A stretch of DNA of 64,000 nt from assembly GCA_964530325.1 (NCBI GenBank), contig CAZHAX010000001.1, forward strand, positions 186,128 to 250,127, written 5' to 3'. Each line of letters opens with the position of its first letter. The stretch's first letter is position 1. Made by a program: the position numbers and the translations under genes. This document shows positions 38,720 to 59,858 of the stretch, piece by piece. This DNA is from an uncultured Anaerolineales bacterium (GTDB taxonomy: Bacteria > Chloroflexota > Anaerolineae > B4-G1). The notes below the pieces were generated by a model. It was not told the origin of the DNA. It saw only the letters and a list, made by a program, of their open reading frames with translations, and searched no databases.

Positions 38720-38849
38720 CCTTGCTGCACAGGCGAAGCGCTGGGCGTGTACGAAGTGCAGGAAGACGATGAACTGGATCCGACCCGGTCGGACCAATGC
38801 TTGGTTGGTAGATCAGCACTGAGTACGCCCGGGGTGGAGAGGTGAGTGG

Positions 38850-40223
<1,374 letters not shown>

Positions 40224-40306
40224 GCGGCGGGCGGCGTTGAGGCGTGTGCGCACATAGCGCGTGAGAAGCGAGAGACAGACGGCTGGGGTTAGGCAGTAGA
40301 CTGAAC

Positions 40307-41251
40307 ATGTCGATCGTGTACTTCGTTCCGTTGGGTCTCGGTTTCCTTCTGCTTGTCGTCGGCTTTGTGATGTCGCGGCGCTCGTCGAGCTCGCTTATTG
40401 AGGAGCGGCTCGGCATTAGCGATGAGCCGGTCGAGGTCACAGAGGGCGTCAGCAAGCGCAAGTCCCCCGTGGGAGAGGCGCTCACACGCGTGCTAGCCCA
40501 GCGGGGCGTGGGAGCCGGGTTGAGCACGCAGCTCGCACAGGCGGATCTCAAGCTTACCGTCGGCGAGTTCATAGCCGCCACAGTAGTCCTCGTCATTGTC
40601 GCTTCAGCTCTGGCCTTCGTCTTGGCCGGGGACGTTCTGATAGTGGGCGTGGTTGTCCTGGCCGGAATCTTCTTGCCACGCTTCTATCTGAAGAGGTTGC
40701 GTGGCCAACGGCTCAAGAACTTCAACGACCAGTTGGGCGATGCCTTGAACCTGATCGTCAACTCCCTGCGAGCCGGCTACAGCGTCCTGCAGGCCATGGA
40801 ATCGGTGGCCCAGGAGATGGGCCCGCCCATGTCTGTAGAGTTCGGACGGGTGCATCAGGAAGTGCAGCTGGGTCTGACTCTCGAGGATGCGCTGGCACAC
40901 ATGACGCGGCGAATCACCAGTGAAGACCTGGACATGACGGTCACCGCCATAAACGTTCAGCGCGAGGTCGGCGGCAACCTGGCGGAGGTGCTGGACTCGA
41001 TCAGCCATACGATTCGCGAGCGTGTGCGCATTCGGGGTGAGATCCGGGCCCTGACGTCCTACGGTCGCGGAGCGGGTACGATGCTCAGCGCCATACCCAT
41101 CATCCTGTCCGGGTGTATATACACCATTCAGCCGGATTTCATGTCCGCGATGTTCACCCACACATGCGGCTATATCCTCACAGCAGCCGCCGTGTCGGGC
41201 ATCGTCCTTGGCTATGTCATCATCCGCAAGATCGTGAACATCGATATCTAG
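40307..41251 (+). CDS. tadB: Flp pilus assembly membrane protein TadB (GspF-like)
   Basis: Polytopic with T2SSF-like cytoplasmic domain (FNDQLGDALNLIVNSLRAGYSVLQAMESVAQEM). Confidence 0.8.
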   Translation: MSIVYFVPLGLGFLLLVVGFVMSRRSSSSLIEERLGISDEPVEVTEGVSKRKSPVGEALTRVLAQRGVGAGLSTQLAQADLKLTVGEFIAATVVLVIVASALAFVLAGDVLIVGVVVLAGIFLPRFYLKRLRGQRLKNFNDQLGDALNLIVNSLRAGYSVLQAMESVAQEMGPPMSVEFGRVHQEVQLGLTLEDALAHMTRRITSEDLDMTVTAINVQREVGGNLAEVLDSISHTIRERVRIRGEIRALTSYGRGAGTMLSAIPIILSGCIYTIQPDFMSAMFTHTCGYILTAAAVSGIVLGYVIIRKIVNIDI

Positions 41252-41271
41252 CGGGTCGGGGGAATGCTACG

Positions 41272-42222
41272 ATGACTGGTGTGCTGATTGTGGCTGCTCT
41301 AGTCTTGCTGGGCGGCGGCATCGCGGTCGCGGTTGGTCTGTCCCGCTCCCGCGAGCCGGTGACCATAGAGGACCGTATCGCTGAATTCGCCACTCTGGAG
41401 CGGCCGCCCACCTTGGAGGAGCTGGAGCTCTCTGCGCCCTTCTTCGAGCGGGTGCTCATTCCGATGCTCCGATCGATCTCTGAGCTGGTCGGGCGACTCA
41501 CGCCGAGGCAGCAGATCGAGGCGACACAGCACAGTCTGGAACTGGCCGGGTATCCGTACGGGTGGGGCTCCGCTGAGTTTGTCGGCGTTCGGCTGCTGGC
41601 CACGCTGCTGCTGGGCGCGATGGGCGTGGCGCTGTCTGTCCTCGGCCAGGACCTGCAGTTCCTTGTGCGGATCCTGCTGGCCGTGGGTGGTGTCGTGGGC
41701 GGATACTATCTGCCGTCGCTATGGCTCAAGAGCAAGATTAGCCAGCGGCAGCGAGCAGTGATCAGGGCCCTGCCGGATGCGCTCGACCTCCTCACCATCT
41801 GCGTTGAGGCCGGCCTGGGCTTCGATGCTGCCATGGCCAAGGTGGCTGAGAAGTGGGACAATGAGCTGAGTCAGGCCTTCTCACGTGTGATCCAGGAGCT
41901 CCAGTTAGGCAAGCTCAGACGTGAGGCCTTGCGCGATATGGCCGACGGCATGGAAGTGCCGGACATCTCGTCGTTCGTGGCAGCCATCATCCAAGCGGAC
42001 CAGCTTGGCGTCAGCATCGCCCGGGTGCTGCGGATTCAGTCTGACCAGATGCGGGTACGGCGGCGGCAGAGAGCCGAGGAGATGGCTCGTGCAGCGACGC
42101 TCAGGATCCTTCCCCCGGTGGCATTCTTCATCTTCCCTTCGATCTTTGTCGTGCTGCTTGGGCCGCCGATGATCCAGATGTTGACCTCGGACGTAGGTCT
42201 CTTCTCTTTCGGGGGTTTCTAG
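41272..42222 (+). CDS. tadC: Flp pilus assembly membrane protein TadC (GspF-like)
   Basis: T2SSF-like (ALPDALDLLTICVEAGLGFDAAMAKVAE...). ATG at 41272 is the internal Met of the track ORF 41113. Confidence 0.8.
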   Translation: MTGVLIVAALVLLGGGIAVAVGLSRSREPVTIEDRIAEFATLERPPTLEELELSAPFFERVLIPMLRSISELVGRLTPRQQIEATQHSLELAGYPYGWGSAEFVGVRLLATLLLGAMGVALSVLGQDLQFLVRILLAVGGVVGGYYLPSLWLKSKISQRQRAVIRALPDALDLLTICVEAGLGFDAAMAKVAEKWDNELSQAFSRVIQELQLGKLRREALRDMADGMEVPDISSFVAAIIQADQLGVSIARVLRIQSDQMRVRRRQRAEEMARAATLRILPPVAFFIFPSIFVVLLGPPMIQMLTSDVGLFSFGGF

Positions 42223-45745: not shown

Positions 45746-46447
45746 TTGGCCCCAGTCCACACCATCTTGCTCGTGGAAGGCAGAAAGCCGACTTCAGCTC
45801 AGCAGGCACCGCTTCTCAACGACCGCGGGGTGCGAGTGGCGACGGCCTGCACCAGGAGGGAGGCGTGGGCCAGGGCCCTCAAAGGGAAGCCTTCCGTGAT
45901 CGTGCTGGACTCCCCGTCTCTGCGCTTCGACTGCCCTCGCTTCTGTGAGTCGCTCCGCAAGGAGGGTATTGAGATCCCCGTGCTGATGCTTCTGCCAGCG
46001 GGGCAGAAGGCTGACCGCAGTCTTGGCGCTCGGGCGTATCTCTCGTACCCTTTCTCTCCGAGGCGGCTCGTGAACAAGATAGTGCGCCTGCTCCCGTCGC
46101 CTGATGACGAGATGATTCAGCTGGGCGACATAGCGCTGAATCTCAAGAAGAGGAACGTCGTCCGGGGTAGGCGAGAGACACATCTGACGCCCAGACAGGC
46201 TAGTCTGCTGGAGGTCTTCATGAAGCACCCCGGGGACGTGCTTACCAGGGCCTACCTCATGAAGCATGTCTGGGATACCGACTACGTAGAAGATACGCGC
46301 ACTCTGGACGTACACGTCCACTGGGTGCGCAAGGCGATCGAAGACGATCCCCGAGCCCCCAAGTGCCTGCGCACGGTGCGCGGGGTGGGCTATCGGCTGG
46401 CAGTTGAAGAAGGGAAAGAGAAGCGGAGGCGTACCAAGAGCAGCTGA
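45746..46447 (+). CDS. OmpR/PhoB-family winged-helix regulator with degenerate receiver domain
   Basis: C-terminal LTPRQASLLEVFMKHPGDVLTRAYLMKHVW...LDVHVHWVRKAI...LRTVRGVGYRL is the trans_reg_C domain. The N-terminal REC-like region is poorly conserved. Confidence 0.65.
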   Translation: MAPVHTILLVEGRKPTSAQQAPLLNDRGVRVATACTRREAWARALKGKPSVIVLDSPSLRFDCPRFCESLRKEGIEIPVLMLLPAGQKADRSLGARAYLSYPFSPRRLVNKIVRLLPSPDDEMIQLGDIALNLKKRNVVRGRRETHLTPRQASLLEVFMKHPGDVLTRAYLMKHVWDTDYVEDTRTLDVHVHWVRKAIEDDPRAPKCLRTVRGVGYRLAVEEGKEKRRRTKSS

Positions 46448-46530: not shown

Positions 46531-46558
46531 GCCCGTCCTGTAGCCAGGACGGGCTTTG
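46531..46558. terminator. Bidirectional rho-independent terminator between convergent genes
   Basis: aaaacagag gcccgtcctg tagc caggacgggc tttgta: perfect 10-bp stem flanked by an A-tract and a T-tract. Confidence 0.6.
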
Positions 46559-46605: not shown

Positions 46606-47037
46606 TCAGCACAGGGTTGCTCTTATCAATGCCACCGCCCGGCTCGTCACCCGGCGGTACGATGTTCCTGGTGGGATGCTGGCGATCAGGATCAAGTTCT
46701 CACCGTCCAGGCTGATCTCGCGGCAGACCAGTCGCGCGCCATCGCTGGTGCGTAGCGTCACTTCGTCCACGTCGGCCAGCCCCAACTGCTTCTGTGCCTC
46801 GCTGCCGGCCTTCCGCAGAACTGCTATTAGAGCCGCCGTCGTGTCGCTGCTGTACTCGGCGGGAACGGTGGCTATCGGCAGGCCCTTGGAGGAGGCCAGC
46901 ACCACGGCGCGGAAACCGCCTTCCGCGTAAGCGGCGGCCAGGGCCTCGTCCAGGGAAACTGGCTGCGACCTCTTGCCTTTCGTTCTCCTAGCGCTCATTT
47001 GCAGGACCTCCTGTGGTGTCACGTCGCTCTGTCGCAC
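46606..47037 (-). CDS. Roadblock/LC7 domain protein (MglB-like), immediately downstream of mglA
   Basis: GFRAVVLASSKGLPIATVPAEYSSDTTAALIAVL...ENLILIASIP is the Roadblock signature. 5-nt gap to mglA. Confidence 0.7.
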   Translation of the reverse strand: MRQSDVTPQEVLQMSARRTKGKRSQPVSLDEALAAAYAEGGFRAVVLASSKGLPIATVPAEYSSDTTAALIAVLRKAGSEAQKQLGLADVDEVTLRTSDGARLVCREISLDGENLILIASIPPGTSYRRVTSRAVALIRATLC

Positions 47038-47041
47038 CTGA

Positions 47042-47626
47042 CTACAGCTGCCTCTGAGCCTTGGCCACGACCAGGTTGATGATCGCCTTCAAGGTCTCGA
47101 AGACGCCCGTGCCCTCCGTAGCCACCGATTCCAAGCACGGCACTCCGTTGAAGCTGAGCTGCTGCTGCATCACGTGGACGGGCACGATGTCCAGCAGATC
47201 CCGCTTGTTGCACTGCAGCACGAGGGGCATGGTTCTGGAATCGCAGCCCAGATCCATCAGGTTCTCGTCCATATTGCGGCGCATATCGACATTGGCCCGC
47301 TCCCGATCCTGCTGGGAGTCGGCGACGAACACAATCCCGTCTGCCCCTTGCAGTACCAGCTTCCGGCTGCCTACGTAGTAGACCTGCCCTGGCACTGTGT
47401 ACAGATTGAAGCGCGGCTTGAGCCCGGCGATCTGGCCCAGCTCCAGCTGCAGAAAGTCGAAGTAGATGGTACGGTCGCCGCGCGTCTTGAGCGACACCAA
47501 CTCGCCCCGGATCTTGGGGCTTGTCTTCAGGTGGATGTACTGCAGGTTCGTCGTCTTGCCGCTGAGTGCGGGCCCGTAGTACACGATCTTGAGGTTGATC
47601 TCACGCAGCTTCCAGTTGATGAACAT
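47042..47626 (-). CDS. mglA: MglA-family Ras-like small GTPase
   Basis: [32 protein letters not shown]...[13 protein letters not shown]...YTVPGQVYY...QCNKRDL is near-collinear with M. xanthus MglA ([49 protein letters not shown]). Confidence 0.9.
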   Translation of the reverse strand: [194 protein letters not shown]

Positions 47627-47641
47627 TGGCCGTGTCCGGTT

Positions 47642-48130
47642 CTAGAGCCCGCCGAATTCCTCTTCCAGCGCGCTGGCCAGAGCTGCGCCGAAGTCCGCAC
47701 CTGGCCCATCCTGCGTGGAGACCAACATCTGCTCGAATCCCTCTGTCAACTCGTGCAGCTCGGTTGCCGCCCGTCCGGCGAAGAGCCTGACCAGGCCCAC
47801 CAACGTATCCGAGCTGAAGATAACAACCAGTATGAAGGTCCCTCCCACGTTGTACAAGTAGATGTTGTGCTTCTCTCCTTCGTGGAGAAAGGCCCCGCTG
47901 GGCTGCTCTTCTCCGATCAGCCTGTTCAGCTCGGCCGTTGCCGCCAGATCACCGGCCGCCAGGGCGGCGACAAGCGTTGGATCGGTCTCCAGTCTGCCCT
48001 GGGCGGCGACCAGCCGGCCTGTGATGTCCGCGAGCAGGACGCATTCGGCGCTCGTCTTCTCGCGCAGATGCGCCATTACTCGCTCAATCCGATCTGACAT
48101 CTCCTCTGGCAGCGCGAAGTCGCTCGTCAC
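47642..48130 (-). CDS. Roadblock/LC7 domain protein
   Basis: ECVLLADITGRLVAAQG...HNIYLYNVGGTFILVVIFS is the Roadblock fold pattern. Confidence 0.65.
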   Translation of the reverse strand: MTSDFALPEEMSDRIERVMAHLREKTSAECVLLADITGRLVAAQGRLETDPTLVAALAAGDLAATAELNRLIGEEQPSGAFLHEGEKHNIYLYNVGGTFILVVIFSSDTLVGLVRLFAGRAATELHELTEGFEQMLVSTQDGPGADFGAALASALEEEFGGL

Positions 48131-48260
48131 GTGAGTACCTCGATTCTCGGTGCTGTACCGGTGGGTTGTGCGACGCGCGGCGGCAGTTGGGCAGTTCGTT
48201 ACCGCCTCCAGCGCGGCCGTTCACTAGCGTCGCTCAGGTGTCAGGGTGCCTAGGCGATCG

Positions 48261-48752
48261 TCAGCGTCTCAGTGTCGACGCCATCATCTCGGCGCGGGTC
48301 ATCCGCCTGCCGTCTTCAGGCCCGGAGCCGTCGTCCTGCTCCGCCTTCGCGGCTGCTGCAGCCGGCGCCGGCGTCGCAGCTACTGGAGCTCCGCTCAGGT
48401 CGATCTCCTTGATGCGCTGGCGCAGCTTGCCCACAGCCACGTCCGCCGTGAGGTTCAGCAGCGGCACGTTGATGCGCCGAACGCATATAATCCCGAGCAC
48501 GCCGCCTTCGGACCCAAGCCCTTTGACGATCAGGCGGCTGTCGGCGTACAGCAGGTCGATGTCGCCAACCTTTCTGCGCCGGGCAGTGTGCAGCCCGGCA
48601 ACGGTCTGCGCCATCGTGCGCGCCACAGGCGATAGGACGGCGTCGTCAAAGACCTCCGGGAGGGCCCTGGCGAGCATTTCCCCATCGCTGTCGCAGACGA
48701 ACGAGCCGGTCACTCCGACAACGGCATTGACGTCCTGCAGTATTTCTTCCAT
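48261..48752 (-). CDS. Roadblock/LC7 domain protein, CxC/LNLTA subfamily (paralog of 4579..5238)
   Basis: MEEILQDVNAVVGVTGSFVCDSDGEMLARALP...GIICVRRINVPLLNLTADVAVGKL. Start at the internal Met (48752). Confidence 0.65.
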   Translation of the reverse strand: MEEILQDVNAVVGVTGSFVCDSDGEMLARALPEVFDDAVLSPVARTMAQTVAGLHTARRRKVGDIDLLYADSRLIVKGLGSEGGVLGIICVRRINVPLLNLTADVAVGKLRQRIKEIDLSGAPVAATPAPAAAAAKAEQDDGSGPEDGRRMTRAEMMASTLRR

Positions 48753-48929
48753 CACACTAACCTCCACTGCCAACTCGTGAGACCTGCACGCCACCGGACG
48801 CTACGTTGTGGGCGGATGCCCTCCAGGCGACACGGGTCCCAGCAGTATCCGCCTGGCTCGATCCTCGCGGTCGGTCCTGAACCTGCTCGACGCTCCACGT
48901 CCGTTCTCTGCGCTGACAACTGCACGCTG

Positions 48930-49424
48930 CTACTGTGCATCCTTTCTAGAGCTCCTGCCTGTCGACGTGCGACTGAGAACCGCCAGCATTTCTGTCTTGG
49001 TCATTGGCTCGGGAGCCGCTTTCGTGCCCGCTTGCTCACGCGGTTGTGTCTGCAGCAGGGCTCCTGCTGCTTTCATCTCCGCGATCATCTGCTCCAGCTT
49101 CCTGGCGGCGAGGTTTGCCGTGACGTTCAGAAGTGCCACGTTGATTTGGGCTATGCAGACCAGACATAGGCAGCCCTCTGTGCCCAGGGGTTTGAGTATG
49201 AGCCGGCCACCATCGTACATCAGGTCGATGTCCCCCATCTTGCTCTTCCCGTTCGTCTTGGCAGCAGCAACGATCTTCGCTACTGCCTCCATGACGGCTT
49301 GGGGGGGAGATGCCTGGCTCACGCCTGGCGACATCACGTGCTCCAAGAGCTTCCCGCCATCGGAGACGACAAAGGCGCCGATCACTCCATTAACTGCGCT
49401 GATGTCCATCAGGATGTTTCGCAT
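48930..49424 (-). CDS. Roadblock/LC7 domain protein, CxC/LNLTA subfamily
   Basis: MRNILMDISAVNGVIGAFVVSDGGKLLEH...CLCLVCIAQINVALLNVTANLAARKL. Confidence 0.65.
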   Translation of the reverse strand: MRNILMDISAVNGVIGAFVVSDGGKLLEHVMSPGVSQASPPQAVMEAVAKIVAAAKTNGKSKMGDIDLMYDGGRLILKPLGTEGCLCLVCIAQINVALLNVTANLAARKLEQMIAEMKAAGALLQTQPREQAGTKAAPEPMTKTEMLAVLSRTSTGRSSRKDAQ

Positions 49425-49448
49425 CTTGCACCGTCCTGCCTGCTGCGT

Positions 49449-49772
49449 CTAGCCAAGAGCTTCCCGCGCGCTCGAGGCGACTATCGCTGGTGAGGCTCTG
49501 TCCGCCAGGAGCAGACCTACGTAGTAGTCTGGCTGCTCCATTACGAGCACAACCTCGTTGCCAATCGTCACCGTGCCCCAGTCGAAGGGGCCGAGGGCGA
49601 GCGATTCGCTCGCCTGGCTCGCCGCGTTGCCAACGAAGACGGCGACAGCCCCTTCCTTGTCCGGACTGGCATCGTTGAGCTCGTGGGCCAGCACTATTCC
49701 ATCACGTGCAGCTATCACCACCCCGTCCACTCCATCGATCTTGCTCAACTTGGCGGCCAATTCCTGTATCAT
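49449..49772 (-). CDS. Roadblock/LC7 domain protein (minimal, 107 aa)
   Basis: KIDGVDGVVIAARDGIVLAHEL...WGTVTIGNEVVLVMEQPDYYVGLLL. Confidence 0.7.
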   Translation of the reverse strand: MIQELAAKLSKIDGVDGVVIAARDGIVLAHELNDASPDKEGAVAVFVGNAASQASESLALGPFDWGTVTIGNEVVLVMEQPDYYVGLLLADRASPAIVASSAREALG

Positions 49773-49844
49773 TCCGATGCCTCCCTTCAGCCTCCCGAGC
49801 CGTCTTGTCTGGACCGGCGCCGCCTGCCCGGATAGCGCGCTTAC

Positions 49845-50315
49845 CTAGGTCCAGAGATCGAGCACCTTCTCCAGGATGCCCTCGGTGCTCTGGGCCATGG
49901 CGGGCTCCCGCCCTGGCCCCTGCTCAGGGGATGATTGCTCTGGTATTGTCTTCCTCTTGGGTAGTTTCTTGATCATTCGTCCCAGCTTTCGGGCGGCCAC
50001 GTTGGCCGTCAGATTCACCTGCGACACGTCGGCGTGGGGAGCACACAGTATGCACAGGCAGCCCGAGCCGGAGACCTTGACGACCAGCCGTCCGTTGCTG
50101 CAGTGGAGGTCGACTTCGCCGACGTCAGACAAGCTCACGCTCTTCAAGCCGGTGACGATTTGGGCCACGCTGGACGCCGCGCACCCCTGTGCTGTACCGT
50201 TGCCGCTTCCGGGGGGCACCGCGACCGCGAGTAGCGCGCCATCCCCATCGCAGACGAATGAGCCAATCACTCCGTATATCGCGTTGATGTCACTCAGTAT
50301 GCTGTCCATCGCCAC
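49845..50315 (-). CDS. Roadblock/LC7 domain protein, CxC/LNLTA subfamily
   Basis: MAMDSILSDINAIYGVIGSFVCDGDGALLA...CLCILCAPHADVSQVNLTANVAARKL. Confidence 0.65.
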   Translation of the reverse strand: MAMDSILSDINAIYGVIGSFVCDGDGALLAVAVPPGSGNGTAQGCAASSVAQIVTGLKSVSLSDVGEVDLHCSNGRLVVKVSGSGCLCILCAPHADVSQVNLTANVAARKLGRMIKKLPKRKTIPEQSSPEQGPGREPAMAQSTEGILEKVLDLWT

Positions 50316-50328
50316 TCGTTCTGAGCTT

Positions 50329-51396
50329 CTAGTGCAAGGCTTGCTTGGCGCTGGCCGCTACGTTGGCGGCCGATGCCCTCTGGTTGAGCAGCATCCCTAC
50401 GAAGTAGTCTGGCCGCTCCATCAGCAGCATCTTCTCCTTGCCGAGCGCCACCGTGCCCCAACTGAAGCTGCCAAGAGACAGCGGCTTTCCCAGTTGGCCG
50501 GCGGCACCCAGCACGAGAACGGCTATGGAGCCCCTGTTTCCGGGCGCGTCATCCAACTCGTGGGCGACCACGGACCCGTCGTGCGCAACGACGACGACCC
50601 CTGTGACACCCTGTATATCCTTGAGAGCGCTGGCCAGGTTCGCGGCTACCTGGTCACCGTCGACTTCGGTCTCATCAGTGAGGAGCTCCAGGTCGACCAA
50701 GCCGGCCATCCCCTCGTCCATGCGGCGGGCGCCTTCCAGCAGCAGTCCGGACCAGCTGCCCTCGATCGTCCTCTTGGGAGCGGAGACGCCCATCTGCAAC
50801 TCGAATTCCCCCTCTTCCCAGGTCAGGAGCTCATAGACGGCATCCGCGCCTGTTTTCTTACCCAGGGCGGCGTGGACGACGTTGCCTTCGGCGAAGTAGA
50901 CCTTGCCTTCTTGGCCGGCCTGCCGGATCCGGAGTAGCGCCTCGTTCCGCTCTGCGCAGTTGATCTGCACGATGTTGGGCAGACTCAGGCTGCGCAGGTT
51001 GCCCTGAACGACCGCGCCACCCTTCGACTCCAGGATACGGCGCACCGCCGCCACCAGGGTCTTGGCATCGAGGGGCTTCTCCAGGAACTCGCAGGCGCCA
51101 AGCTGCAGGGCCTCGACTACGTTCTCCTTCGTGCCGTAGGCCGTGAGGATTGCGACTGAGGCCCGTGGGTTGTGCTCTCTGATCGCGGCCAGAAGCTTGA
51201 GGCCGTCCATGCCGGGCATCTTCAGGTCTGTGACCACGAGGTCGAAGTCCTCGCTCCGGTACAGCTTGATCGCGCTGGCGCCGTCCGAGGCTCCCTCGAC
51301 GGAGAAGCCTTCCAGCTGGAGTATCCTCTTGCACGTCTTGACCACGTTGGGTTCGTCGTCTACCACTAGAACGCGTTTCTGAGCCATTGCCACCAC
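50329..51396 (-). CDS. Response regulator receiver + DUF4388 (PATAN-like) + C-terminal Roadblock/LC7 domain
   Basis: REC (RVLVVDDEPNVV...LVVTDLKMPGMDG...KPL). The middle region LPNIVQINCAERNEALLRIRQAGQEGKVYFAEGNVVHAALGKKTGADAVYELLTWEEGEFEL matches the DUF4388 consensus as I recall it. The C-terminus IQGVTGVVVVAHDGSVVAHEL...WGTVALGKEKMLLMERPDYFVGMLL is a Roadblock domain closely related to 49449..49772. Confidence 0.75.
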   Translation of the reverse strand: MVAMAQKRVLVVDDEPNVVKTCKRILQLEGFSVEGASDGASAIKLYRSEDFDLVVTDLKMPGMDGLKLLAAIREHNPRASVAILTAYGTKENVVEALQLGACEFLEKPLDAKTLVAAVRRILESKGGAVVQGNLRSLSLPNIVQINCAERNEALLRIRQAGQEGKVYFAEGNVVHAALGKKTGADAVYELLTWEEGEFELQMGVSAPKRTIEGSWSGLLLEGARRMDEGMAGLVDLELLTDETEVDGDQVAANLASALKDIQGVTGVVVVAHDGSVVAHELDDAPGNRGSIAVLVLGAAGQLGKPLSLGSFSWGTVALGKEKMLLMERPDYFVGMLLNQRASAANVAASAKQALH

Positions 51397-51425
51397 TCCC
51401 TCATTCAGTCAGCTAACGCCTGCTC

Positions 51426-52455
51426 CTAGCCGTCAAGCTCCGGCGGAATGATTCCCTTTGCCACTGCCGATTCATAGTCCAGCAGCTCTCTGTCCTCCTC
51501 GTCTCCGTAGAGGTCCTGTGCCTCGAGTTCCTTCCGGCTGGGGCCCGGAGCCGGCGCGGCGGCGGGCCTGGCCTCACCTGATGCCTCAGACAGCACCGCA
51601 TCAAGCTCTGCCATCAGCGAGGAGCCGAACTCCGCGTCCAGTACCTGAGCGGGCACGCTGGCCGTGCTGTCAGCCAGCGTGTTCATCAGGCTCTCGACCG
51701 CTCTCCTGGTGTAGAGCCACACAAGCCCAATCCGGCTTGCCTGGGCCTTCCGATCGTAGACGATGGCCAGGAAGAAGTCCTCCCCCACGTTGGCGGAGTA
51801 GATCTCGTAGCGCGCACCCTCGTGGAAATTGAGGTTGATCGCATTGCCACTGCCGAAGTACTCGGCCAGCCCTCTGGCGGTAGCGAAGCCGCCTGCCAAC
51901 AGCGAAAGCAGGGCAGAGGGATCCGGCCCCAGCTGGCCCCCGGCCTGTGCCAGGCGCTGGCCCAGCATGTCCGCCAGATGTATCGACTGGGCGCCGATCT
52001 CACGCCGCAGCTCCTCCAGGTGCTTGGTGATCTCCTCAAAGGTCTGATCCGAGAGGATGACCAGGCCCGGTTGGCTCATCGCCTCGTCCGGAAGAGCCCT
52101 CTGGACCGCCTTCATGAGCACGTCCACCTTGAGGGGCTTGGAGATGTATCCGGCTACACCCAGGCTGCGGGCCTCTTCCTCGATCGCGCTGCTGCCGTAT
52201 GCGGTCACCAGAATCGAGCGCGTCTCCGGGCTGGAGGTCTTCACCTGCCGAATCAGCTCCAGGCCGCTGATCCCCGGCATTCTCAGGTCCGTGACCATCA
52301 GGTCCACGTCTTCCTTCGAGATGGCTTGCAGCGCCTCCTCGCCGGACTCGACTACCGTGACCCTGTAGGTCTGGTTCGAGCGCTCCAGCACCTTCTTCAG
52401 AAAGGCCGCTACCGACGGCTCGTCGTGCGCAATGAGGATGTGTTTCTGGGCCATT
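51426..52455 (-). CDS. Response regulator receiver + Roadblock-like C-terminal domain
   Basis: REC (HILIAHDEPSVAAFL...LMVTDLRMPGISG...KPL). C-terminal FHEGARYEIYSANVGEDFFLAIVY is Roadblock-like. ATG at 52455 is the internal Met of the track ORF. Confidence 0.7.
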
Positions 52456-52608
52456 TGCCTATATCTGCTCTCGCGGAAGCAGTACCGAGCCGTTTGGCCC
52501 TGGCTTCCGTCAGCATCTCTATCAACAATATAGCACAAGGGGCACGGTTTGTGGGTTCCGAGAACCTCCCACACAGGGTGCAGTTACGTTCCGGCAGGCG
52601 TAGCCTGC

Positions 52609-53457
52609 CTACTGCTTCTGATGGCTCTCGGGGGGAGGGGACGGGGCGCAGACAGCGTAGCCGCTGCCGCGCACCGTAAGGACCACGGGGGGGTCGTCCG
52701 GGCGGGGCTCCAGCTTCTGCCGCAGACGATGGATGTGCGTCCGCAGCAAGACCCGCGCATCGCGCTCGTCGAGTTCGTAGCCTCGAATGTGCAGGACGAG
52801 CTCCCGGCAAGAGATGACCCTGTCCCGGTGGCGGATGAGATACGCCAGGATGTCGAACTCGGTTGGCGTCAGCTCGACAGGCTGGCCACGCAGCACCACG
52901 AGGCGCCTCAGGCTGTCCACAGTCACATCCGCCACTTGGAGGAAACGCTCGACCGGAGCCTGAGCATCCGGCCGCTGGGGGCTATCCCTGAGAGTGACGA
53001 GGACTCTCTCCAGGAGCTTCACCGGCTCATCGTCGTGCAACCTGCGGCTGCGCTCCGCCAGGCCGGCCTCTACGGCTCTGGCGATTTCATCTGTGGAAGA
53101 CGGCTTGAGCAGATAGTCGAAGGCGCCGTGCCGGATGGCAACGATGGCCGAATCGAGCGAGCCGTAGCCTGTGAGGATGACAAAGACCGTGTCCGGGGCC
53201 ATCCTGCAGGCCCGCTGAAGAACGTCGGTCCCCTCCATGTGCGGCAGCTTGAGGTCGAGGACGACGAGATCGAAGATCTCAGATTCGATCTGATCCAACG
53301 CCGCCTTGCCTGTGGCCGCCTCACTAGCGTCGTACCCCATGTGGCGGAAGAGCCCGGTCAGCGTCCGGCGTATAGCCTGGTCGTCGTCCACCACCAGGAT
53401 TCGCGGTCGGGCCGTGGTCGAGCGCTCTAGACTCTCGGCCTGTCTTGAGGTGACCAT
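52609..53457 (-). CDS. OmpR-family response regulator
   Basis: REC (RILVVDDDQAIRRTL...LVVLDLKLPHMEG...KP) + trans_reg_C (LTPTEFDILAYLIRHRDRVISCRELV...LRTHIHRLRQKL...VLTVRGSGY). Confidence 0.85.
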   Translation of the reverse strand: MVTSRQAESLERSTTARPRILVVDDDQAIRRTLTGLFRHMGYDASEAATGKAALDQIESEIFDLVVLDLKLPHMEGTDVLQRACRMAPDTVFVILTGYGSLDSAIVAIRHGAFDYLLKPSSTDEIARAVEAGLAERSRRLHDDEPVKLLERVLVTLRDSPQRPDAQAPVERFLQVADVTVDSLRRLVVLRGQPVELTPTEFDILAYLIRHRDRVISCRELVLHIRGYELDERDARVLLRTHIHRLRQKLEPRPDDPPVVLTVRGSGYAVCAPSPPPESHQKQ

Positions 53458-53503
53458 CGCTACATCTTCCAGTCGAGCGTCCGGCCTTGCTGCGGGTATG
53501 GGT

Positions 53504-55117
53504 TCACGTCCGACCCGCAGGGATCTCAGCCTCTGCCTTCACAGGAAGCAGCACGGTGAACTCGGCTCCCTTGTCGAGTTCGCTCTCGACGGTGATCTCG
53601 CCCCCATGGCGCTCGACCACGTTGCGGCTGATGGCGAGGCCCAGCCCTGTGCCCTTCTCACGCGTGGAGAAGAACGGCTCGAAGATGCGTTCCAGATGTG
53701 CCTCTTCGATGCCGTGCCCCGTGTCTCGGAACTTCAGCGCTACACGCCCGTCGTCCGCAACGGCGCTGGAGACGGATACCGCGCCCCCGTCCGGCATGGC
53801 ATCGACGGCGTTCAGCACCAGGTTGATGACCACCTGCTCCAGCTCATCGGGCGCTGCCACTATGCTGGGCAGGTCGGGCGCCAGGTCTCGGTGTACAGAC
53901 ACGTCACGATGCTGCAAGTACTTGGCAGCGAGCGTGAGGACTCGGTCGATGATGGAGTTCACGTCCGTGGGCTCCATCTCCCGCCGAGGAGGACGCGCAA
54001 ACTCAAGTATGCTGGTCACCATGCCCATCAGCCGCTGGATCTCCTCATCGGCTATCTGCAGGTACTCCCTCTGCTCCTTGATCTCCAGGGGGAAGTCGAG
54101 CATCAGCTGCAGGCTGTTGTGGATGGCCTGGAGAGGGTTGTTGATCTCGTGGGCGAGCGAGGCGGCCAGGCGACCGGTGGCTGCCAGCTTGTCGCTCTGC
54201 ACCAGTTGGAGGCGGGACTGCTCGAGCAGGCTGCGCAGCTCTCGCTCCGCCTGATACAGTCGGGCGTTGGTGATGCCAATGGCGGCGGATCCGGCCAGCG
54301 TGGCCAGCAGCTCGATGTCGTGGTGGTCGAACTCGCCGGCAGCCTTGTTGACGGCCAGGATGGCACCGATCGTGCTGTCTTTGTACGACAACGGCACCGC
54401 CAACAGGGAACGGGTGGCCTCACCTGCCAGGGCGTCTGTTCTGTCCGAGAAGCGGTCGTCGCTCCGCGCGTCCGGCACCAATGCTGGTTCGCCGCTGGAC
54501 ACCACCGAGCCGGCGATTCCCTCATTGGAGGCGGCGGTAGACCCGATCGAAGGGCCGGCATCGGCCCCGGCCGCGGCGGCAACCCTCAGTTCGTCCGTGC
54601 CTCTCTCGAGGAGAATCACAGCGGTCGCCTCCGCGCCCAACATGTCCCTGGCTTCCGCCATGGCCAGGTTCAACACCTCATCCGGATCGAGAGTGGCAAT
54701 CATCGCCTGAGTGGCCCGACTGAGCGCGGTGAGACGCTTGCGGAATCGGCGCCCCTCCATCGCCCGCTGCACTGTCGACCGGATGACGTCGGCGTGGAAT
54801 GGCTTGGTGACGTAGTCGCAGGCACCCAAGCGGAGAGCATCTATCGCGTTCTCCACCGATGCGTAGGCTGTGAGGACTATGATCGCCACCTGAGGCGACC
54901 GGTCACGGATCTGCTTCAACACCTCCATGCCGTCCATATCGGGCAGCATCATGTCGAGGACCGCCACGCCGAACCGCCCAGCCTCCATTGCCTTCAAGGC
55001 GTCCTTCCCGCTGGTGGCCAAGACGATCTCGTAGCCCAGGGGCGAGAGGCATTCTCTCACCAGATCGCACATCCCCCGGTCGTCGTCCAGAATGAGGACC
55101 CTGTCTTGGCTGGCCAT
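53504..55117 (-). CDS. Hybrid sensor kinase: N-terminal receiver + GAF + HisKA + HATPase_c
   Basis: REC (RVLILDDDRGMCDL...VAVLDMMLPDMDG...KPF). GAF-like (DPDEVLNLAMAEARDMLGAEATAVILL...LLAVPLSYKDSTIGAILAVN). H-box LAASLAHEINNPLQAI. N/G boxes (VINLVLNAVDAM, RDTGHGI, GTGLGLAISRNVVERHGGEI). The antisense ORF 53306..55141 is rejected. Confidence 0.85.
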   Translation of the reverse strand: MASQDRVLILDDDRGMCDLVRECLSPLGYEIVLATSGKDALKAMEAGRFGVAVLDMMLPDMDGMEVLKQIRDRSPQVAIIVLTAYASVENAIDALRLGACDYVTKPFHADVIRSTVQRAMEGRRFRKRLTALSRATQAMIATLDPDEVLNLAMAEARDMLGAEATAVILLERGTDELRVAAAAGADAGPSIGSTAASNEGIAGSVVSSGEPALVPDARSDDRFSDRTDALAGEATRSLLAVPLSYKDSTIGAILAVNKAAGEFDHHDIELLATLAGSAAIGITNARLYQAERELRSLLEQSRLQLVQSDKLAATGRLAASLAHEINNPLQAIHNSLQLMLDFPLEIKEQREYLQIADEEIQRLMGMVTSILEFARPPRREMEPTDVNSIIDRVLTLAAKYLQHRDVSVHRDLAPDLPSIVAAPDELEQVVINLVLNAVDAMPDGGAVSVSSAVADDGRVALKFRDTGHGIEEAHLERIFEPFFSTREKGTGLGLAISRNVVERHGGEITVESELDKGAEFTVLLPVKAEAEIPAGRT

Positions 55118-55151
55118 TCACGCTCTCCTGGTTGGCAATGATCTCAGATCT

Positions 55152-56480
55152 CTACTGCTGCTGACTTACAGGTACGTATATGCGGAAAGGCAGCGGCTCG
55201 TAGGCCTGGTTGGTTCCCAGTTCACCGCTCTCCGAGCCTCCGCCAATTGCGTAGACCGTTCCCTCCAGCACCGCCAGCCCGGGGCCGCGCCACTCGCCTA
55301 CGAGAGGCGTCTCGATGGGACTCCAGGAACCATCAGATGGGCTGTACCGCTCGTTGAAGCCAAGGTAGGTTGTCTCCCCTGCCGCACCGATGGCGTAGAG
55401 CTGACCTGCCAGAGGCGCCAGACCGAGCCCCGCTCGCCCAACGGCCATGGAGGGGCAGGAACCCCAAGTTTCGGATGCGGGGTCAAATACGGAGCAGGTC
55501 CTGAGCTCCTGGCTGCCATCGTAGCCGCCGACTACGTAGATGAGGTTTCCCAGCGCGGCGGCGGAGGCGAAGGCGCGCCCGGAGTCCATAGGCACCGAAC
55601 TGGACCACCGGTCGGCGTCCGGATCGTATACGTAGGTGTCCGCTGTATAGCGGCTGCCGTCCCACCCGCCGAATAGGTATATGCGCCGATCGTAGACCGC
55701 GAGCGCGGATGCGCAGCGGGCCTCGGGCATAGCGCTGGCCTGCCGCCAGGAATCGGTCACTGGGTCGTAGACCTCGACCGAGCCCACGGGATTGGAGTCC
55801 TGGTCGCAGCCACCGGGCAAGAACACTTCCCCCTCCAGAATGGCGGCCGACACTCCGAAGACGGGCGTCGGCTTGTCGCGGCCGCGCGTCCACAGGTCGT
55901 TTGCTGGGTCGTACCGCTCGACTACGGCGGTCGGTCCGTCTTCCGTCAGACCAGCGATGGCCAGGACCTGGTGCTCCAAGCCGACTGCGGCAAGGTAGGA
56001 GCGCCTGGTGGGCATCTGGGCACGCTCCGACCAGCTCGAATCCTGCGCTACGGCCATTCCGGGCTGGGACAGGCCGCCCTGCTGCCCAAGCGGGAGCTCC
56101 GCTGCATCGTCCCCGTTCGCGCCGTTGGAGGGCCCAGTGGCCGCAAAGGATGCAGCCACCAGCAGTGCTGCAGCCACGAGCGTCACCCGTCTCCAGCCTG
56201 GCAGGGGCGCCGCGATAGACGCGGGCCGGCCGGGCCCAACCTTCCCTGCCTCCTCCGGAAGGGCCCCCTTCAGGCGGACTATGCCTTCCCGCACCGCTAT
56301 GACGGTAGCCTCTGTGCGCGATTCGGCGTTCAGCTTGCCGAACACGTTGCGCAGGTGCACTTTCACCGTGTTAGCGCTGATTCCGAGGCGGTAAGCGATC
56401 TCCCGGTTGGTGACGCCTGTGGCCACCATCTCCAGGATCTCGATCTCGCGCTGGGTCAGGGATTCGCGCAGCTCGTCCAT
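55152..56480 (-). CDS. LuxR-family HTH + single TM + extracytoplasmic Kelch-repeat beta-propeller protein
   Basis: Start MDELRESLTQREIEILEMVATGVTNREIAYRLGISANTVKVHLRNVFGKL (LuxR HTH). TM (VTLVAAALLVAASFAA). Five or more Kelch-like repeats (AAVGLEHQVLAIAGL, AAILEGEVFLPGG, ALAVYDRRIYLFGGWDG, AAALGNLIYVVGGYDG, LAPLAGQLYAIGA). Confidence 0.7.
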   Translation of the reverse strand: MDELRESLTQREIEILEMVATGVTNREIAYRLGISANTVKVHLRNVFGKLNAESRTEATVIAVREGIVRLKGALPEEAGKVGPGRPASIAAPLPGWRRVTLVAAALLVAASFAATGPSNGANGDDAAELPLGQQGGLSQPGMAVAQDSSWSERAQMPTRRSYLAAVGLEHQVLAIAGLTEDGPTAVVERYDPANDLWTRGRDKPTPVFGVSAAILEGEVFLPGGCDQDSNPVGSVEVYDPVTDSWRQASAMPEARCASALAVYDRRIYLFGGWDGSRYTADTYVYDPDADRWSSSVPMDSGRAFASAAALGNLIYVVGGYDGSQELRTCSVFDPASETWGSCPSMAVGRAGLGLAPLAGQLYAIGAAGETTYLGFNERYSPSDGSWSPIETPLVGEWRGPGLAVLEGTVYAIGGGSESGELGTNQAYEPLPFRIYVPVSQQQ

Positions 56481-56594
56481 GCCTTCATGCGGTCCGCCTA
56501 GCGGGGCTCGGGAAGAGTGCCATCCCGTGTGGCGCCGGCGGGCACTGCCGGGCTCCCCATAAAGACGGGCAGGAAACGGGTTCTTGCGAGAGCG

Positions 56595-56604
56595 ATTATA
56601 GCAC
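56595..56604 (-). promoter_or_regulatory. Extended -10 promoter GTGCTATAAT for the LuxR-Kelch gene (minus strand)
   Basis: Reverse complement of gattatagcac. Same 10-mer as at 27226 and 27257. Confidence 0.35.
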
Positions 56605-56801
56605 ACGGGTCGCTGCGGGCAAGAGCCTGGCTGCTTCTGCCCCGCGAGTTGCCGCCGACGGCCCTCCCGGCGGCCACCAGCCGTCTTGCGCCTGTCAGTT
56701 GCGCTCGACCACAGAGTGGGACCTCGCCCGGCGCACGGCCAGCGGTGCACACAGGGCAGGCCTGTCCTGGCACTCCATGCTATGATCGTGCGCGCGGCCG
56801 G

Positions 56802-57653
56802 TCAGTCGAGATGGACCGGAGTCGCGCAAGCGTTGTCAAACCAAGCCCCTGGTCCTTGCGCAGATGCCTCGCCGCGACGCCCTGGCCTGTCAGGCGGCCC
56901 CAGGCTCTCCTGCAGCAGCGCCCTCAGCACTTGAGGTAGGTTCGTTATGATGCCGTTGACGCCCAATCCGATCAGGCGGCGCATCTCGGCTGGCTCATCC
57001 ACGGTCCAGGCCTGCACTTGCATCCTGCGGCGCCGGGCCCGGCTGATGTACAACCGGTCGATGACCGTATGCTCAGGGTGGATAGCCGATACCGCGAGCA
57101 GCGACCCGAGCAGCATGAGTAGCCGCTGGCAGGGGAAGGCGTGGCTGGCCAGCATCCCGAGCTGGAGGTGCGGCGCCAGCCTCTTGGTCTGCAGCAGCGC
57201 GAACGGGTTGAAGGAGGAGATGAGTACGGAGCTGCCCAATCTGAGCCTCTCTACCTCTGCCACGGCAGCGGCGGGCAGCCGGGTGTCGAGCGCGGAGGTG
57301 CTCTTGAGCTCGAGGTTCAGCAGCAGGCGATCCTTGGCCCACGTCAGCAGCTCCTCCAGCGTGGGTATCTGCTCGCGGCGATAAGCAGCGTCGAACTGGC
57401 TGCCCACGTCGATTGCCTTCAATTGCTCCAGAGTCAAGTCTGCGACGCGAGGGTTGCTGCCGTCAGGCAGCAAGACGGTGGAGTCGTGAATCACCACGGG
57501 AACGCCATCGCCGGAGAGGCGCACGTCGAACTCGACTCCGTCCGCGCCGAGCTCGTACGCCTTGCGCACGGCAGACAGGGTGTTGGGTGGGGCGACGCTG
57601 CTGGCACCGCGGTGCGCGATGTTGAGCACCCGCCCGTCGCCAACGGCGCCCAT
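56802..57653 (-). CDS. Glycerophosphodiester phosphodiesterase (GDPD) family
   Basis: LNIAHRGASSVAPPNTLSAVRKAYELGADGVEFDVRLSGDGVPVVIHD is the GDPD HR(G)/E/D motif set. Start ATG 57653 overlaps the stop of the upstream AAA gene by 1 nt. Confidence 0.75.
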   Translation of the reverse strand: MGAVGDGRVLNIAHRGASSVAPPNTLSAVRKAYELGADGVEFDVRLSGDGVPVVIHDSTVLLPDGSNPRVADLTLEQLKAIDVGSQFDAAYRREQIPTLEELLTWAKDRLLLNLELKSTSALDTRLPAAAVAEVERLRLGSSVLISSFNPFALLQTKRLAPHLQLGMLASHAFPCQRLLMLLGSLLAVSAIHPEHTVIDRLYISRARRRRMQVQAWTVDEPAEMRRLIGLGVNGIITNLPQVLRALLQESLGPPDRPGRRGEASAQGPGAWFDNACATPVHLD

Positions 57654-59002
57654 CAGATCTCGACGAAGTAGGCCTCGCAGGCGCGATCGACCAGCTCCTT
57701 GCTCAACGTAGGTTCGACGCTGAGGTAGCGAGCGATATCGATGAGCTGGTCGATTATGTCGCGTGGGTGACACGACCTCTTAGACCGGTCCGGCTTGATG
57801 TAGTGTTCCTGGATCAGATAGGCAAGGCCCTCGTCATTGTAGGGGATACCCTTGGACTGGCAGGCTCGGCGGAAGATCTCTCTGTACTCGTCCCAGTTCG
57901 GATCCTTGATCTCGATCTTGTGACGGATGCGGCGCAGGAATGCCTCGTCGACCAGGTCGCGCGGCGCCAGGTTGGTGGCGAAGACAATCAAGAGGTCGAA
58001 TGGGATCTCGATCTTGCGCCCAGTGTGGAGCGTGAGGTAGTCGACCCGCTTTTCCAGAGGGACGATCCAGCGGTTGAGCAGGTCGCGAGGGCGGGCCTGC
58101 TGCCGGCCGAAGTCATCGATGAGCAGCATGCCGCCGTTCGCCCGAACCTGGAAGGGAGCCTCGTAGTACTTGTTGTGCTCGTCGTAGACCAGATCGAGTG
58201 ACTCCAGAGTGAGTTCACCGCCGGTAATGATGACCGGCCTGCGGATGCGTACCCACCTCGGATCGTGTGTCCTCTCCGTAGTGTCCGTACCGTTCGCCCG
58301 TTGGTGATTGACGTAGTCGAAGATCCTGATCACCTGGCCGCCGACCTCGATGGCGTACGGGATGTACAGCGAATCCTTCAGTATCATGTCTCCGATCGCC
58401 TCGGCGATCGCCGTCTTCCCGTTTCCGGGGTAGCCGAACAGGAAGACGGAGCGACCGGAGTTGACCGCTGGTCCCAGGCGGGCGAATGTGTCCTCGCCGA
58501 CGACCAGGTGGCCCAATGCCTTGCGCATTGTCCGCTGGCGAATAGTGACCTTGCTCAAAGGCTGCTTGTCGATCGCGCTGATGTACGCTTCCAGCGTGGC
58601 CGGTGCCGGGCCGGTGTACTGGCCGCGCTCCATGGCCTCGCGGGCCATGCCCCGCCCTTTGTCTGCGATGGCGTACTGATAGGCCGCCTCGGCGAACCCT
58701 GCTGCGCCTTTCACTTCGCACAGCTGTTCCCGCTTCATCGCCTCCAGGATCTGATCCACGACGCCGGAATAGGGGAGCCGCAGCCGCTCGGCGAGCTCGT
58801 AGCCGGAGAGGCTGCTCTCCACGTACAGCGTCTTGATGGCTAGTTCCGTCAGGAAGGTCAGGCTCAGCCCGGTGTCCTTGATGGACTTGGGCATCGGAGG
58901 TACGTACATAGGCGGGGCGACAGGTAGCGAGTCATCCGTGCCTACCTCCACCTCCTCCTGCCTCTCCTTCTCAGCAACCATAACTTGGCTTCCTGCCCAC
59001 AC
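57653..59002 (-). CDS. AAA+ family ATPase of unknown function with N-terminal winged-helix-like region
   Basis: Walker A VFLFGYPGNGKTAIAEA. Walker B MLLIDDFGRQ. Sensor region LIVFATNLAP. Arg finger region AFLRRIRHKIEI. No specific subfamily recognised. Confidence 0.6.
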   Translation of the reverse strand: MWAGSQVMVAEKERQEEVEVGTDDSLPVAPPMYVPPMPKSIKDTGLSLTFLTELAIKTLYVESSLSGYELAERLRLPYSGVVDQILEAMKREQLCEVKGAAGFAEAAYQYAIADKGRGMAREAMERGQYTGPAPATLEAYISAIDKQPLSKVTIRQRTMRKALGHLVVGEDTFARLGPAVNSGRSVFLFGYPGNGKTAIAEAIGDMILKDSLYIPYAIEVGGQVIRIFDYVNHQRANGTDTTERTHDPRWVRIRRPVIITGGELTLESLDLVYDEHNKYYEAPFQVRANGGMLLIDDFGRQQARPRDLLNRWIVPLEKRVDYLTLHTGRKIEIPFDLLIVFATNLAPRDLVDEAFLRRIRHKIEIKDPNWDEYREIFRRACQSKGIPYNDEGLAYLIQEHYIKPDRSKRSCHPRDIIDQLIDIARYLSVEPTLSKELVDRACEAYFVEI

Positions 59003-59237
59003 GGGCCCTCCTCCCTACGCCTCTGCGCAGGCTACGAAGGCGACGGCGGTACGGAGTGACGAGCAGCGGCGTGTGCCAGGTCGAACCAGAACATGCTTGT
59101 CGACGAGGGAATGCCTGGCGACACCCAGGGTCACGCCGTTCCTGTCTTCTCCACCAGCACTGCATGAGGTGAGAGCGCTGCTGATCGGCGTACCCCTCGG
59201 TACAGCTCCATAGTACTTGGATGCCGCCGAGCGTAGG

Positions 59238-59265
59238 GTTACAGGCCCGTTACAGCCTGGTTACT
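59238..59265 (-). promoter_or_regulatory. Three GTAAC direct repeats with exact 11-bp periodicity upstream of the AAA ATPase gene (read on minus strand)
   Basis: Plus strand ggGTTACAGgcccGTTACAGcctgGTTACtc. Co-oriented with the downstream minus-strand gene, as the triple at 27180-27208 is with its gene. Confidence 0.4.
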
Positions 59266-59307
59266 CGGACTGCTGATTTCGCTCTCGTATCAGCAGCCAC
59301 CATTTGC

Positions 59308-59673: not shown

Positions 59674-59812
59674 ACTGGTGATTATACAATGGGAGCGCCA
59701 TTCGGGCACGATCGGTCCGCGCAGCCGTTCCTGCTTCTCCCCATGTCCGCGCTTTGTAGGTATAATGTAGCTACCCTCCAGGCTCGCCCCGGAGCCGGCT
59801 GGCGAGGGTTAT

Positions 59813-59838: not shown

Positions 59839-59858
59839 ACAGGAGCAGAACCGAAGCG

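Follow-up and report, generated by a model that had tools for sequence, protein, structure and literature searches.

How a two-component signal might reach a bacterial small GTPase is the question raised by a stretch of DNA from an uncultured Anaerolineales bacterium (64,000 nucleotides of contig CAZHAX010000001.1, referred to throughout as the window), in which the genes for a histidine kinase and an OmpR-family response regulator lie immediately upstream of a block of Roadblock-domain and MglA genes. What is known of polarity control by MglA and MglB comes almost entirely from Myxococcus; there several separate, unlinked proteins connect the sensory kinases to the GTPase, in a manner still under debate. 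The answer that we favour is that kinase and regulator form a cognate pair controlling the MglA module transcriptionally, a reading to which we give an even chance. It draws on domain content, intact catalytic and acceptor residues, a conserved gene order and a conserved motif at a fixed position.

The kinase (53504..55117, minus strand; 537 residues) was delineated by Pfam and motif search as a REC-GAF-HisKA-HATPase_c protein, with Response_reg at residues 7–116 (E = 2.8e-29), GAF at 144–282 (E = 1.6e-19), HisKA at 315–375 (E = 1.9e-13) and HATPase_c at 423–527 (E = 3.1e-28). Both hallmarks of a HisKA-type (class I) kinase are present, namely a dimerization and histidine phosphotransfer domain with the H-box histidine (LAHEINNP, phospho-accepting His323; the H-box is found in 119 of 122 homologues) and the ATP-binding N-box (NLVLNA, 432), G1 box (DTGHG, 465) and G2 box (GTGLG, 489). 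Since a membrane-segment scan found no hydrophobic segment beyond the receiver core, the kinase is regarded as cytoplasmic. Its receiver, with Asp55 as the acceptor, precedes GAF and HisKA, and the same order is seen in all of the 101 homologues (out of 122) that carry an N-terminal receiver, with D57 of CheY numbering in 99 and K109 in 101 of them. The first-pass annotation of this DNA had placed a hybrid kinase and an OmpR regulator here; open reading frames and Pfam confirm both genes on the minus strand, but the kinase is not a classical hybrid, and its N-terminal receiver is an input or regulatory domain for which the phosphate donor may be this same kinase or a different one. The phosphorelay proposed at the same time has to be given up, given the N-terminal position of the receiver and the lack of any histidine phosphotransfer (Hpt) family among the Pfam hits for the genes from 45746 to 61526. 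One HPTransfase match (E = 0.0029) was considered as an Hpt domain and rejected, being below the cut-off and inside HATPase_c.

The position of this receiver also bears on a reading in which the kinase is an intermediate: its N-terminal receiver would be phosphorylated by another kinase (e.g. a Che-like or PAS kinase), and the pair would relay an upstream pathway with GAF as modulator. We consider this quite improbable. The prevalence of the N-terminal receiver among homologues and its intact acceptor pocket are consistent with it, as are two of the related loci described below (L084 and L092), where more REC-kinases or a CheB-containing cluster lie directly upstream on the same strand; against this, there is no second HisKA-type kinase near the cluster in the window. 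Such a relay would moreover be compatible with transcriptional control by a cognate pair and not exclusive of it.

Separated from the kinase gene by 46 bp is the gene for the regulator (52609..53457, minus strand; 282 residues), which Pfam places in the OmpR/PhoB family on both counts, an intact receiver (Response_reg, E = 2.8e-26) and a C-terminal winged helix (Trans_reg_C, E = 1.4e-20, profile positions 1–76 of 77, aligned with E. coli OmpR). The receiver has an acidic pocket (DDD, 24–26), the acceptor D68, and a Thr and a Lys that align with T87 and K109 of CheY. RpaB and MtrA are its best NCBIfam matches, both under the cut-off. Between receiver and DNA-binding domain the regulator and its orthologues have an unusually long linker of ∼45 residues (residues ∼130–185) with a conserved EPVxLLERAL. 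A hairpin after the stop codon was evaluated as a terminator and is not convincing (−17.4 kcal/mol, but z = −1.76 and no T-run).

Both genes are upstream of, and co-directional with, genes for a REC-MglB fusion, a REC-PATAN-Roadblock fusion, small Roadblock proteins, MglB, MglA and a last Roadblock protein, so that the order of kinase, OmpR and REC-Roadblock genes suggested at first pass is confirmed. The REC-MglB fusion (51426..52454, minus strand; Asp56; identified with Pfam, NCBIfam and PDB) has a start, MAQKH, that is confirmed by an identical database protein of 342 residues. Its residues 128–288 match positions 3–160 of the 161 in the NCBIfam MglB model (E = 1.8e-16, below the equivalog cut-off) and it matches PDB MglB 6izw_B with E = 7e-13; we use the name REC-MglB because the Roadblock part is a full-length MglB homologue. 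The second fusion (50329..51396, minus strand; Asp57; Pfam) carries PATAN (DUF4388, PF14332; residues 131–228, E = 1.6e-22; PatA_N in precomputed annotations), its orthologues carry PF03259, and its C-terminal 106 residues are 55% identical to the stand-alone Roadblock protein encoded at 49449..49772 (107 residues). The latter gene is one of four small Roadblock-type genes on the minus strand (49845..50315, 49449..49772, 48930..49424 and 48261..48794) that have weak Robl_LC7 matches, mutual similarity and matches in relatives, which have one such gene where the window has four. Those for 156, 164 and 177 residues are paralogues, of a type labelled PF27323 ‘RdxA_C’ in precomputed annotations of relatives.

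They are followed, on the same strand, by an MglB orthologue (47642..48130; Robl_LC7, E = 2.5e-10; PDB MglB 6h5b_B, E = 3.9e-20), which like REC-MglB resembles characterised MglB over its full length, both having a putative role as GTPase-activating protein (GAP), and by MglA (47042..47626; PDB 3t12_A, E = 1.3e-63). The YTVPGQV and GDRT (intrinsic arginine) segments of MglA align with those of T. thermophilus MglA and assign it to group 1, the hallmarks of which are the TVPGQ G3 motif and an intrinsic arginine beside the G2 threonine (PMC4316618); it is 64–85% identical across relatives. A further Roadblock gene (46606..47037, minus strand; Pfam) closes the operon, and the terminator scan found a terminator-like hairpin after it (46531..46554). 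In three related loci (L001, L004 and L088) REC-MglB is directly upstream of mglA, the canonical position of mglB, which supports a role as a receiver-controlled MglB.

Is the association of the pair with this block more than an accident of one contig? Related loci were sampled through REC-PATAN and REC-MglB and, in reverse, through homologues of the kinase, and were scored by tblastn and Pfam; a scan of a genome collection for REC-PATAN-Roadblock gave receiver-only loci in 75 of 80 cases, the informative ones being L001–L004 and L021. The named sources of the REC-MglB and kinase homologues are Chloroflexota, Anaerolineae, Anaerolineales and Thermoflexia. An OmpR gene follows the kinase gene in all nine loci with a kinase orthologue (the window, L004, L082, L084, L086, L089, L090, L091 and L092), and the pairing persists even where insertion of a GNAT gene or an IS200 element has separated the two; in L082, L084, L086, L089, L090 and L091 the OmpR orthologues behind the kinase are 54–78% identical to that of the window. 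REC-MglB is directly preceded, on its own strand, by the pair in six of the nine independently sampled REC-MglB loci (the window, L004, L082, L084, L086 and L089), although such locus counts do not represent independent trials, the related loci being phylogenetically related metagenome contigs that may be incomplete. All six kinases have an N-terminal REC, a GAF(-PAS) region and HisKA, and next to REC-MglB the identities are 45–64% for the kinase and 38–64% for OmpR. Reverse sampling adds three loci: L090 (83% identity), in which the gene order is that of the window; L091 (59% identity), where a LuxR-Kelch gene (see below), the kinase and OmpR genes and the promoter element are kept together with genes for an MglB-like and a REC-GAF protein; and L092, considered further on. 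The OmpR orthologue of L087 (64% identity) lies at a distance of 7.5 kb, next to a different kinase. The pair and the Roadblock/MglA block thus form a conserved neighbourhood in Anaerolineae/Chloroflexota, in which the pair often, but not obligatorily, accompanies the MglA block.

Where the output of such a pair might act is suggested by the 154-bp gap between OmpR and REC-MglB. The gap holds a conserved promoter-like element, which makes it probable that the pair and the Roadblock/MglA block are separate transcription units. In the window this promoter- or operator-like element (52527..52592, minus strand) reads GGAAC-GTAAC, N17, GGAGG, N6, GGAAC(CC), N22 and an extended -10, TGcTATATT. Across relatives the gap aligns amid otherwise diverged DNA, with an extended -10 of TGnTAnAnT, G(G/A)AAC(CC) 22 nt upstream of it, GnAAC 11 nt further and a third copy ∼17 nt beyond; the element is present in the window, L082, L086, L089, L090, L091, L087 and L088 and is weaker in L004 and L084. 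In 10 of 11 loci the promoter of REC-MglB bears GnAAC direct repeats that are ∼11 bp apart and end 21–22 nt before the -10 hexamer.

The first-pass annotation had suggested transcriptional output via GTAAC repeats, and this part of its model gains support in altered form: it is phased GnAAC repeats before a -10 that are conserved at promoters, and only the phased double or triple repeats preceding a -10 hexamer are significant. Two triple GTAAC arrays with 11-bp spacing occur in the window (0.0 expected), each ending 21–22 nt before a -10 hexamer. One (59238–59264, in the element GTAAC x3, N22, TACTAT; 59210..59264, minus strand) is upstream of a gene for an AAA-like protein (57653..59002), the first of the block upstream of the kinase, and of a GDPD gene, with its repeats conserved in L086 and L090 and two of them in L091; the other (27180–27208, in GTAAC x3, N21, TGCTATAAT; 27180..27235, plus strand) is upstream of a Tad/Flp pilus operon. 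The pattern G[TAG]AAC-N5-7-G[TAG]AAC-N20-23-TAnnnT has 13 matches in 290 kb (the window and 11 loci; 0.12 expected), 11 of which are at promoters flanking the kinase-OmpR unit or at the Tad promoter of the window. One match is directly upstream of the kinase in L091 (9883–9926), and the sites flanking the unit, this one included, fit autoregulation; the two remaining matches are in L001, on the opposite strand, at no identifiable promoter. In a -10-anchored comparison the proximal repeat is 21–22 nt upstream of the -10 in 13 promoters of four unrelated families. A metagenome scan with GTAAC-N6-8-GTAAC-N6-GTAAC-N20-23-TAnnnT returned at least 120 stretches, and among the matches listed none encodes relatives of window proteins (at least 35% identity), which points to chance matches.

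Head-to-tail binding to direct repeats with 10–11 bp phasing that overlap the -35 is characteristic of OmpR/PhoB winged-helix regulators, as exemplified by the pho box, the GTAAA-N5-GTAAA of CpxR and the GxxAC half-sites of OmpR. The repeat-bearing promoters here have no TTGACA-like -35. In the motif-bearing loci the recognition helix of OmpR is near-invariant (DERDARxLLRxHIHRLRxKL), and where this helix differs (L004 and L092) the motif is weak or absent. We infer from position and co-conservation that the OmpR-family regulator binds the GnAAC repeats, its candidate operator, and output through these repeats appears to be the best-supported part of the earlier model.

The mechanism that we propose would run as follows. 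Kinase and regulator would be a cognate pair, probably co-transcribed with LuxR-Kelch from a constitutive-looking promoter. GAF would read a cytoplasmic signal, phosphorylation of the N-terminal receiver would modulate the response, and together they would set autophosphorylation of His323, from which phosphate would pass to Asp68 of the regulator. Once phosphorylated, the regulator would bind, in the style of a pho box, the tandem GnAAC repeats (∼11 bp apart) in the -35 region of promoters that have no good -35, and would activate the REC-MglB...MglB-MglA operon, the AAA-like/GDPD unit and, in this genome, also the neighbouring Tad operon. The binder of the motif, every phosphotransfer in this scheme and the link to polarity and pili are deduced from sequence and gene context.

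Could the same kinase also act on the Roadblock proteins themselves? The receivers were aligned with CheY and PhoB, and D57, T87 and K109 (CheY numbering) are kept in the kinase receiver, OmpR, REC-MglB and REC-PATAN. It had been stated in advance that REC-Roadblock receivers lacking the conserved Asp, Lys and Thr would tell against phosphate input to them; these residues are kept in the window and across the 118 homologues of the REC-MglB family (44–82% identity; D57 in 117/118, T87 and K109 in 118/118 each, D13 in 114/118). Residue 10 of REC-MglB is His at the position of Asp12 in the acidic pocket of CheY, a feature confined to three of the 118 family members (the window protein and two close relatives), and this might alter metal binding or phosphorylation kinetics. 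That the kinase also phosphorylates REC-MglB and REC-PATAN-Roadblock, the Roadblock domains of which would then be phosphorylation-gated GAP-type regulators of MglA, is an extension that we hold with somewhat less than even confidence.

If that were the main coupling, a single kinase would branch phosphate to OmpR, REC-MglB and REC-PATAN-Roadblock post-translationally and the GnAAC repeats would not be an OmpR operator, a possibility that we judge unlikely. It is in line with the presence of four receivers and one transmitter in the cluster, with the REC-GAF kinase being the sole kinase within 25 kb, with the gene order kept in six of nine loci, and with the strongly conserved acceptor residues and alpha1 helix of the REC-MglB family, which suggest a conserved kinase partner. 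The only other kinase in the window is encoded by a HisKA_3 gene (25663..26709; Pfam) beside its own NarL-type regulator; a phmmer search with the kinase core against the open reading frames of the window had indicated a single kinase, a result overturned by this Pfam match. The alpha1 helix usually bears partner specificity, however, and that of REC-MglB (DDEP[RK]VAFFL...) is unlike that of OmpR (DDDQAIRRTL...), which argues against equal use of one kinase. Branched phosphotransfer is further at variance with REC-MglB genes that are without this kinase in L001, L087 and L088 and have other kinases nearby, and with kinase-OmpR pairs without REC-MglB in L091 and L092; in the cluster there is no Hpt domain and hence no relay, and such branching would not account for a motif that flanks the kinase-OmpR unit on both sides. 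A comparison of receiver specificity residues is descriptive only and lends no support to a shared kinase. Joining both routes gives a Chloroflexota-specific island in which one two-component system would control MglA at two levels, through OmpR at GnAAC repeats (also at Tad) and through phosphorylation of the receiver-fused MglB and PATAN-Roadblock proteins by the kinase; we put this forward tentatively and think it rather doubtful as a whole. If true, GAP-type regulation of MglA would be directly phosphorylation-gated.

Several observations weigh against transcriptional control by a cognate pair. In L001 and L088 neither kinase nor OmpR is found within 10 kb of REC-MglB, so that the MglA block occurs there without the pair, and L088 nevertheless keeps the REC-MglB promoter element with no OmpR gene within that distance. 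Conversely, the L091 locus is without REC-MglB, REC-PATAN and MglA, and L092 (48% identity) has kinase and OmpR without the GTPase block. The REC-MglB promoter of the window has a degenerate middle repeat (GGAGG) and only one perfect GTAAC, and the GTAAC pentamer as such, looked at for enrichment in the window, is not enriched (27 found, 31 expected), which removes the simple form of the earlier repeat suggestion. The kinase core is nearest to AtoS/ZraS-type cores (NCBIfam), the usual partners of which are NtrC-type regulators. The unlike alpha1 helices count here as well, and what links the GnAAC repeats to OmpR is position and co-conservation.

Some of these observations would be expected if the blocks were uncoupled neighbours, the pair, with LuxR-Kelch, controlling something else and the synteny reflecting shared descent in one Anaerolineae lineage. 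The GnAAC repeats would then be bound by LuxR-Kelch, by a degenerate second OmpR protein (OmpR2, 45746..46447, plus strand) or by a factor encoded elsewhere. Each block is found without the other, L088 retains the promoter element of REC-MglB although no OmpR gene is nearby, and LuxR-Kelch matches OmpR in its synteny with the promoters that bear the motif. Shared descent, however, does not sit easily with an order that survives 38–64% protein identity and insertions of GNAT, IS200 and an extra REC gene amid intergenic DNA that has otherwise diverged. GerE-type helix-turn-helix proteins usually bind inverted repeats, and direct repeats with 11-bp phasing fit OmpR/PhoB regulators, not the usual GerE-type sites. 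OmpR2, divergent at the end of the MglA operon, has an intact winged helix and a degenerate pseudo-receiver (EG replaces DD, and Thr87 and Lys109 are missing), and it is without a syntenic counterpart in the related loci compared. On balance we regard such uncoupled neighbours as improbable and retain transcriptional control by the kinase-OmpR pair as the working interpretation.

The LuxR-Kelch gene (55152..56480, minus strand) is 34 bp upstream of the kinase gene and encodes a LuxR (GerE) helix-turn-helix, one predicted transmembrane segment (residues 99–117) and a Kelch propeller, as identified by Pfam. Its sigma70-like promoter (TTGCCC-N17-TGCTATAAT; 56595..56622, minus strand) differs from the repeat-bearing promoters in having a -35 and no repeats. 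In L082, L086, L089, L090 and L091 the gene is syntenic, directly upstream of the kinase, with 52–74% identity. The protein looks like a membrane-anchored one-component regulator and may serve as a co-sensor or itself bind the repeats in place of OmpR.

Beyond it the AAA-like gene (57653–59002, minus strand) encodes 449 residues that show only a weak P-loop/AAA signal and reach the cut-off for no family. With 73–90% identity in relatives, the protein ranks second only to MglA in conservation within the neighbourhood; its gene is the first behind the triple GTAAC site, begins after a 5′ leader of ∼200 nt and ends in a stop codon that shares 1 nt with the likely start of GDPD. A wider frame is common to L086, L089, L090 and L091: Zincin, an AAA-like protein of ∼430 residues, GDPD, in some cases Metallophos, LuxR-Kelch, kinase, OmpR ... 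REC-GAF and a XerC-like integrase. The REC-GAF protein of ∼420 residues that closes the cluster in relatives (L082 17559–18788, L084 16562–17809, L086 14265–15533, L087 14275–15558, L089 14446–15726 and L091 14128–15456) shares ∼30% identity with the kinase's N-terminal half and lacks a recognised output domain; the XerC-like integrase gene follows it on the opposite strand. The window has neither the cluster-end REC-GAF gene nor the integrase gene. Divergent from the zincin gene is a gene (59859–61526, plus strand) whose product joins an extracytoplasmic function sigma factor to a zf-HC2 anti-sigma domain and a long Pro/Thr-rich extracytoplasmic tail.

On the other side of the MglA cluster, 4 kb away, is a complete Tad/Flp pilus operon (27241..42222, plus strand), with genes for a TadE-like protein of 1274 residues, TadE, TadG-VWA, RcpC/CpaB, CpaE (37373..38719; N-terminal receiver), CpaF, TadB and TadC. 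Its promoter combines the triple GTAAC with TGCTATAAT, with two tandem copies of the -10, in the architecture seen around the kinase-OmpR unit. A NarL-type regulator and HisKA_3 kinase pair (24892–26709, plus strand) is directly upstream of this promoter, and this system could also control the pilus operon.

If transcriptional control by the kinase-OmpR pair is borne out, the locus would be a compact example of two-component control over a bacterial small GTPase and would offer, for filamentous Chloroflexota, a first handle on how motility or polarity (Tad pili) is regulated; should the model fail, the pair is a two-component system of the ordinary kind that happens to adjoin a GTPase block. 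A putative input kinase, an OmpR-type output with a predicted operator, receiver-fused MglB-type regulators and the GTPase are found together here, in a layout that recurs across many uncultured Anaerolineae. Elements of this layout have been recorded before: the 2014 survey of Wuichet and Sogaard-Andersen lists fusions of Response_reg to MglB-like domains and PATAN-domain genes near group 1/5 mglA (PMC4316618), and in that survey as in Makarova et al. 2006 REC-MglB fusions and PATAN neighbourhoods are noted at catalogue level only. In the literature searched, we found no description of a conserved kinase-OmpR partner, an operon order or a promoter motif for a REC-MglB/MglA island.

With PhoR-PhoB, CpxA-CpxR, EnvZ-OmpR and the HLR1 of RpaB the locus shares an adjacent kinase and winged-helix regulator and direct repeats with ∼10–11 bp phasing over the -35, and, as in the classical OmpR/PhoB systems, the unit seems from the sites in front of its own genes to be autoregulated. 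Unlike in those systems, the kinase is a soluble protein that carries GAF and an N-terminal receiver, the regulator has a linker of ∼45 residues, and the predicted regulon, given putative operator binding, is a GTPase polarity module together with Tad pili.

The Streptomyces conservon, in which the CvnA kinase, CvnB Roadblock, CvnC DUF742 and CvnD GTPase are co-located (PMC4316618), likewise has a histidine-kinase gene beside Roadblock and small-GTPase genes. CvnA, however, is a HAMP kinase of the membrane, no response regulator accompanies it, and CvnD is a group-2 MglA, whereas the cluster described here has a soluble kinase, four receivers and a group-1 MglA. Membership of the conservon family was considered and is ruled out, since the kinase is soluble and Pfam gives no DUF742 or HAMP match in the cluster.

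In the Myxococcus xanthus module MglA and MglB work with RomR, FrzX/FrzZ and the CheA-type kinase of the Frz system (PMC4316618; PMC3441718), and mglA does not neighbour the genes encoding its signalling partners (PMC4316618). A group-1 MglA (TVPGQ, intrinsic arginine), an MglB encoded just upstream of mglA and phospho-signalling through receiver proteins, predicted in the present case, are common to that module and to the locus described here. The two differ in that in this locus MglB-like and PATAN-Roadblock domains have receivers fused directly to them, the kinase next to them is of the soluble HisKA type with REC and GAF and not CheA, and an OmpR-type factor is part of the unit.

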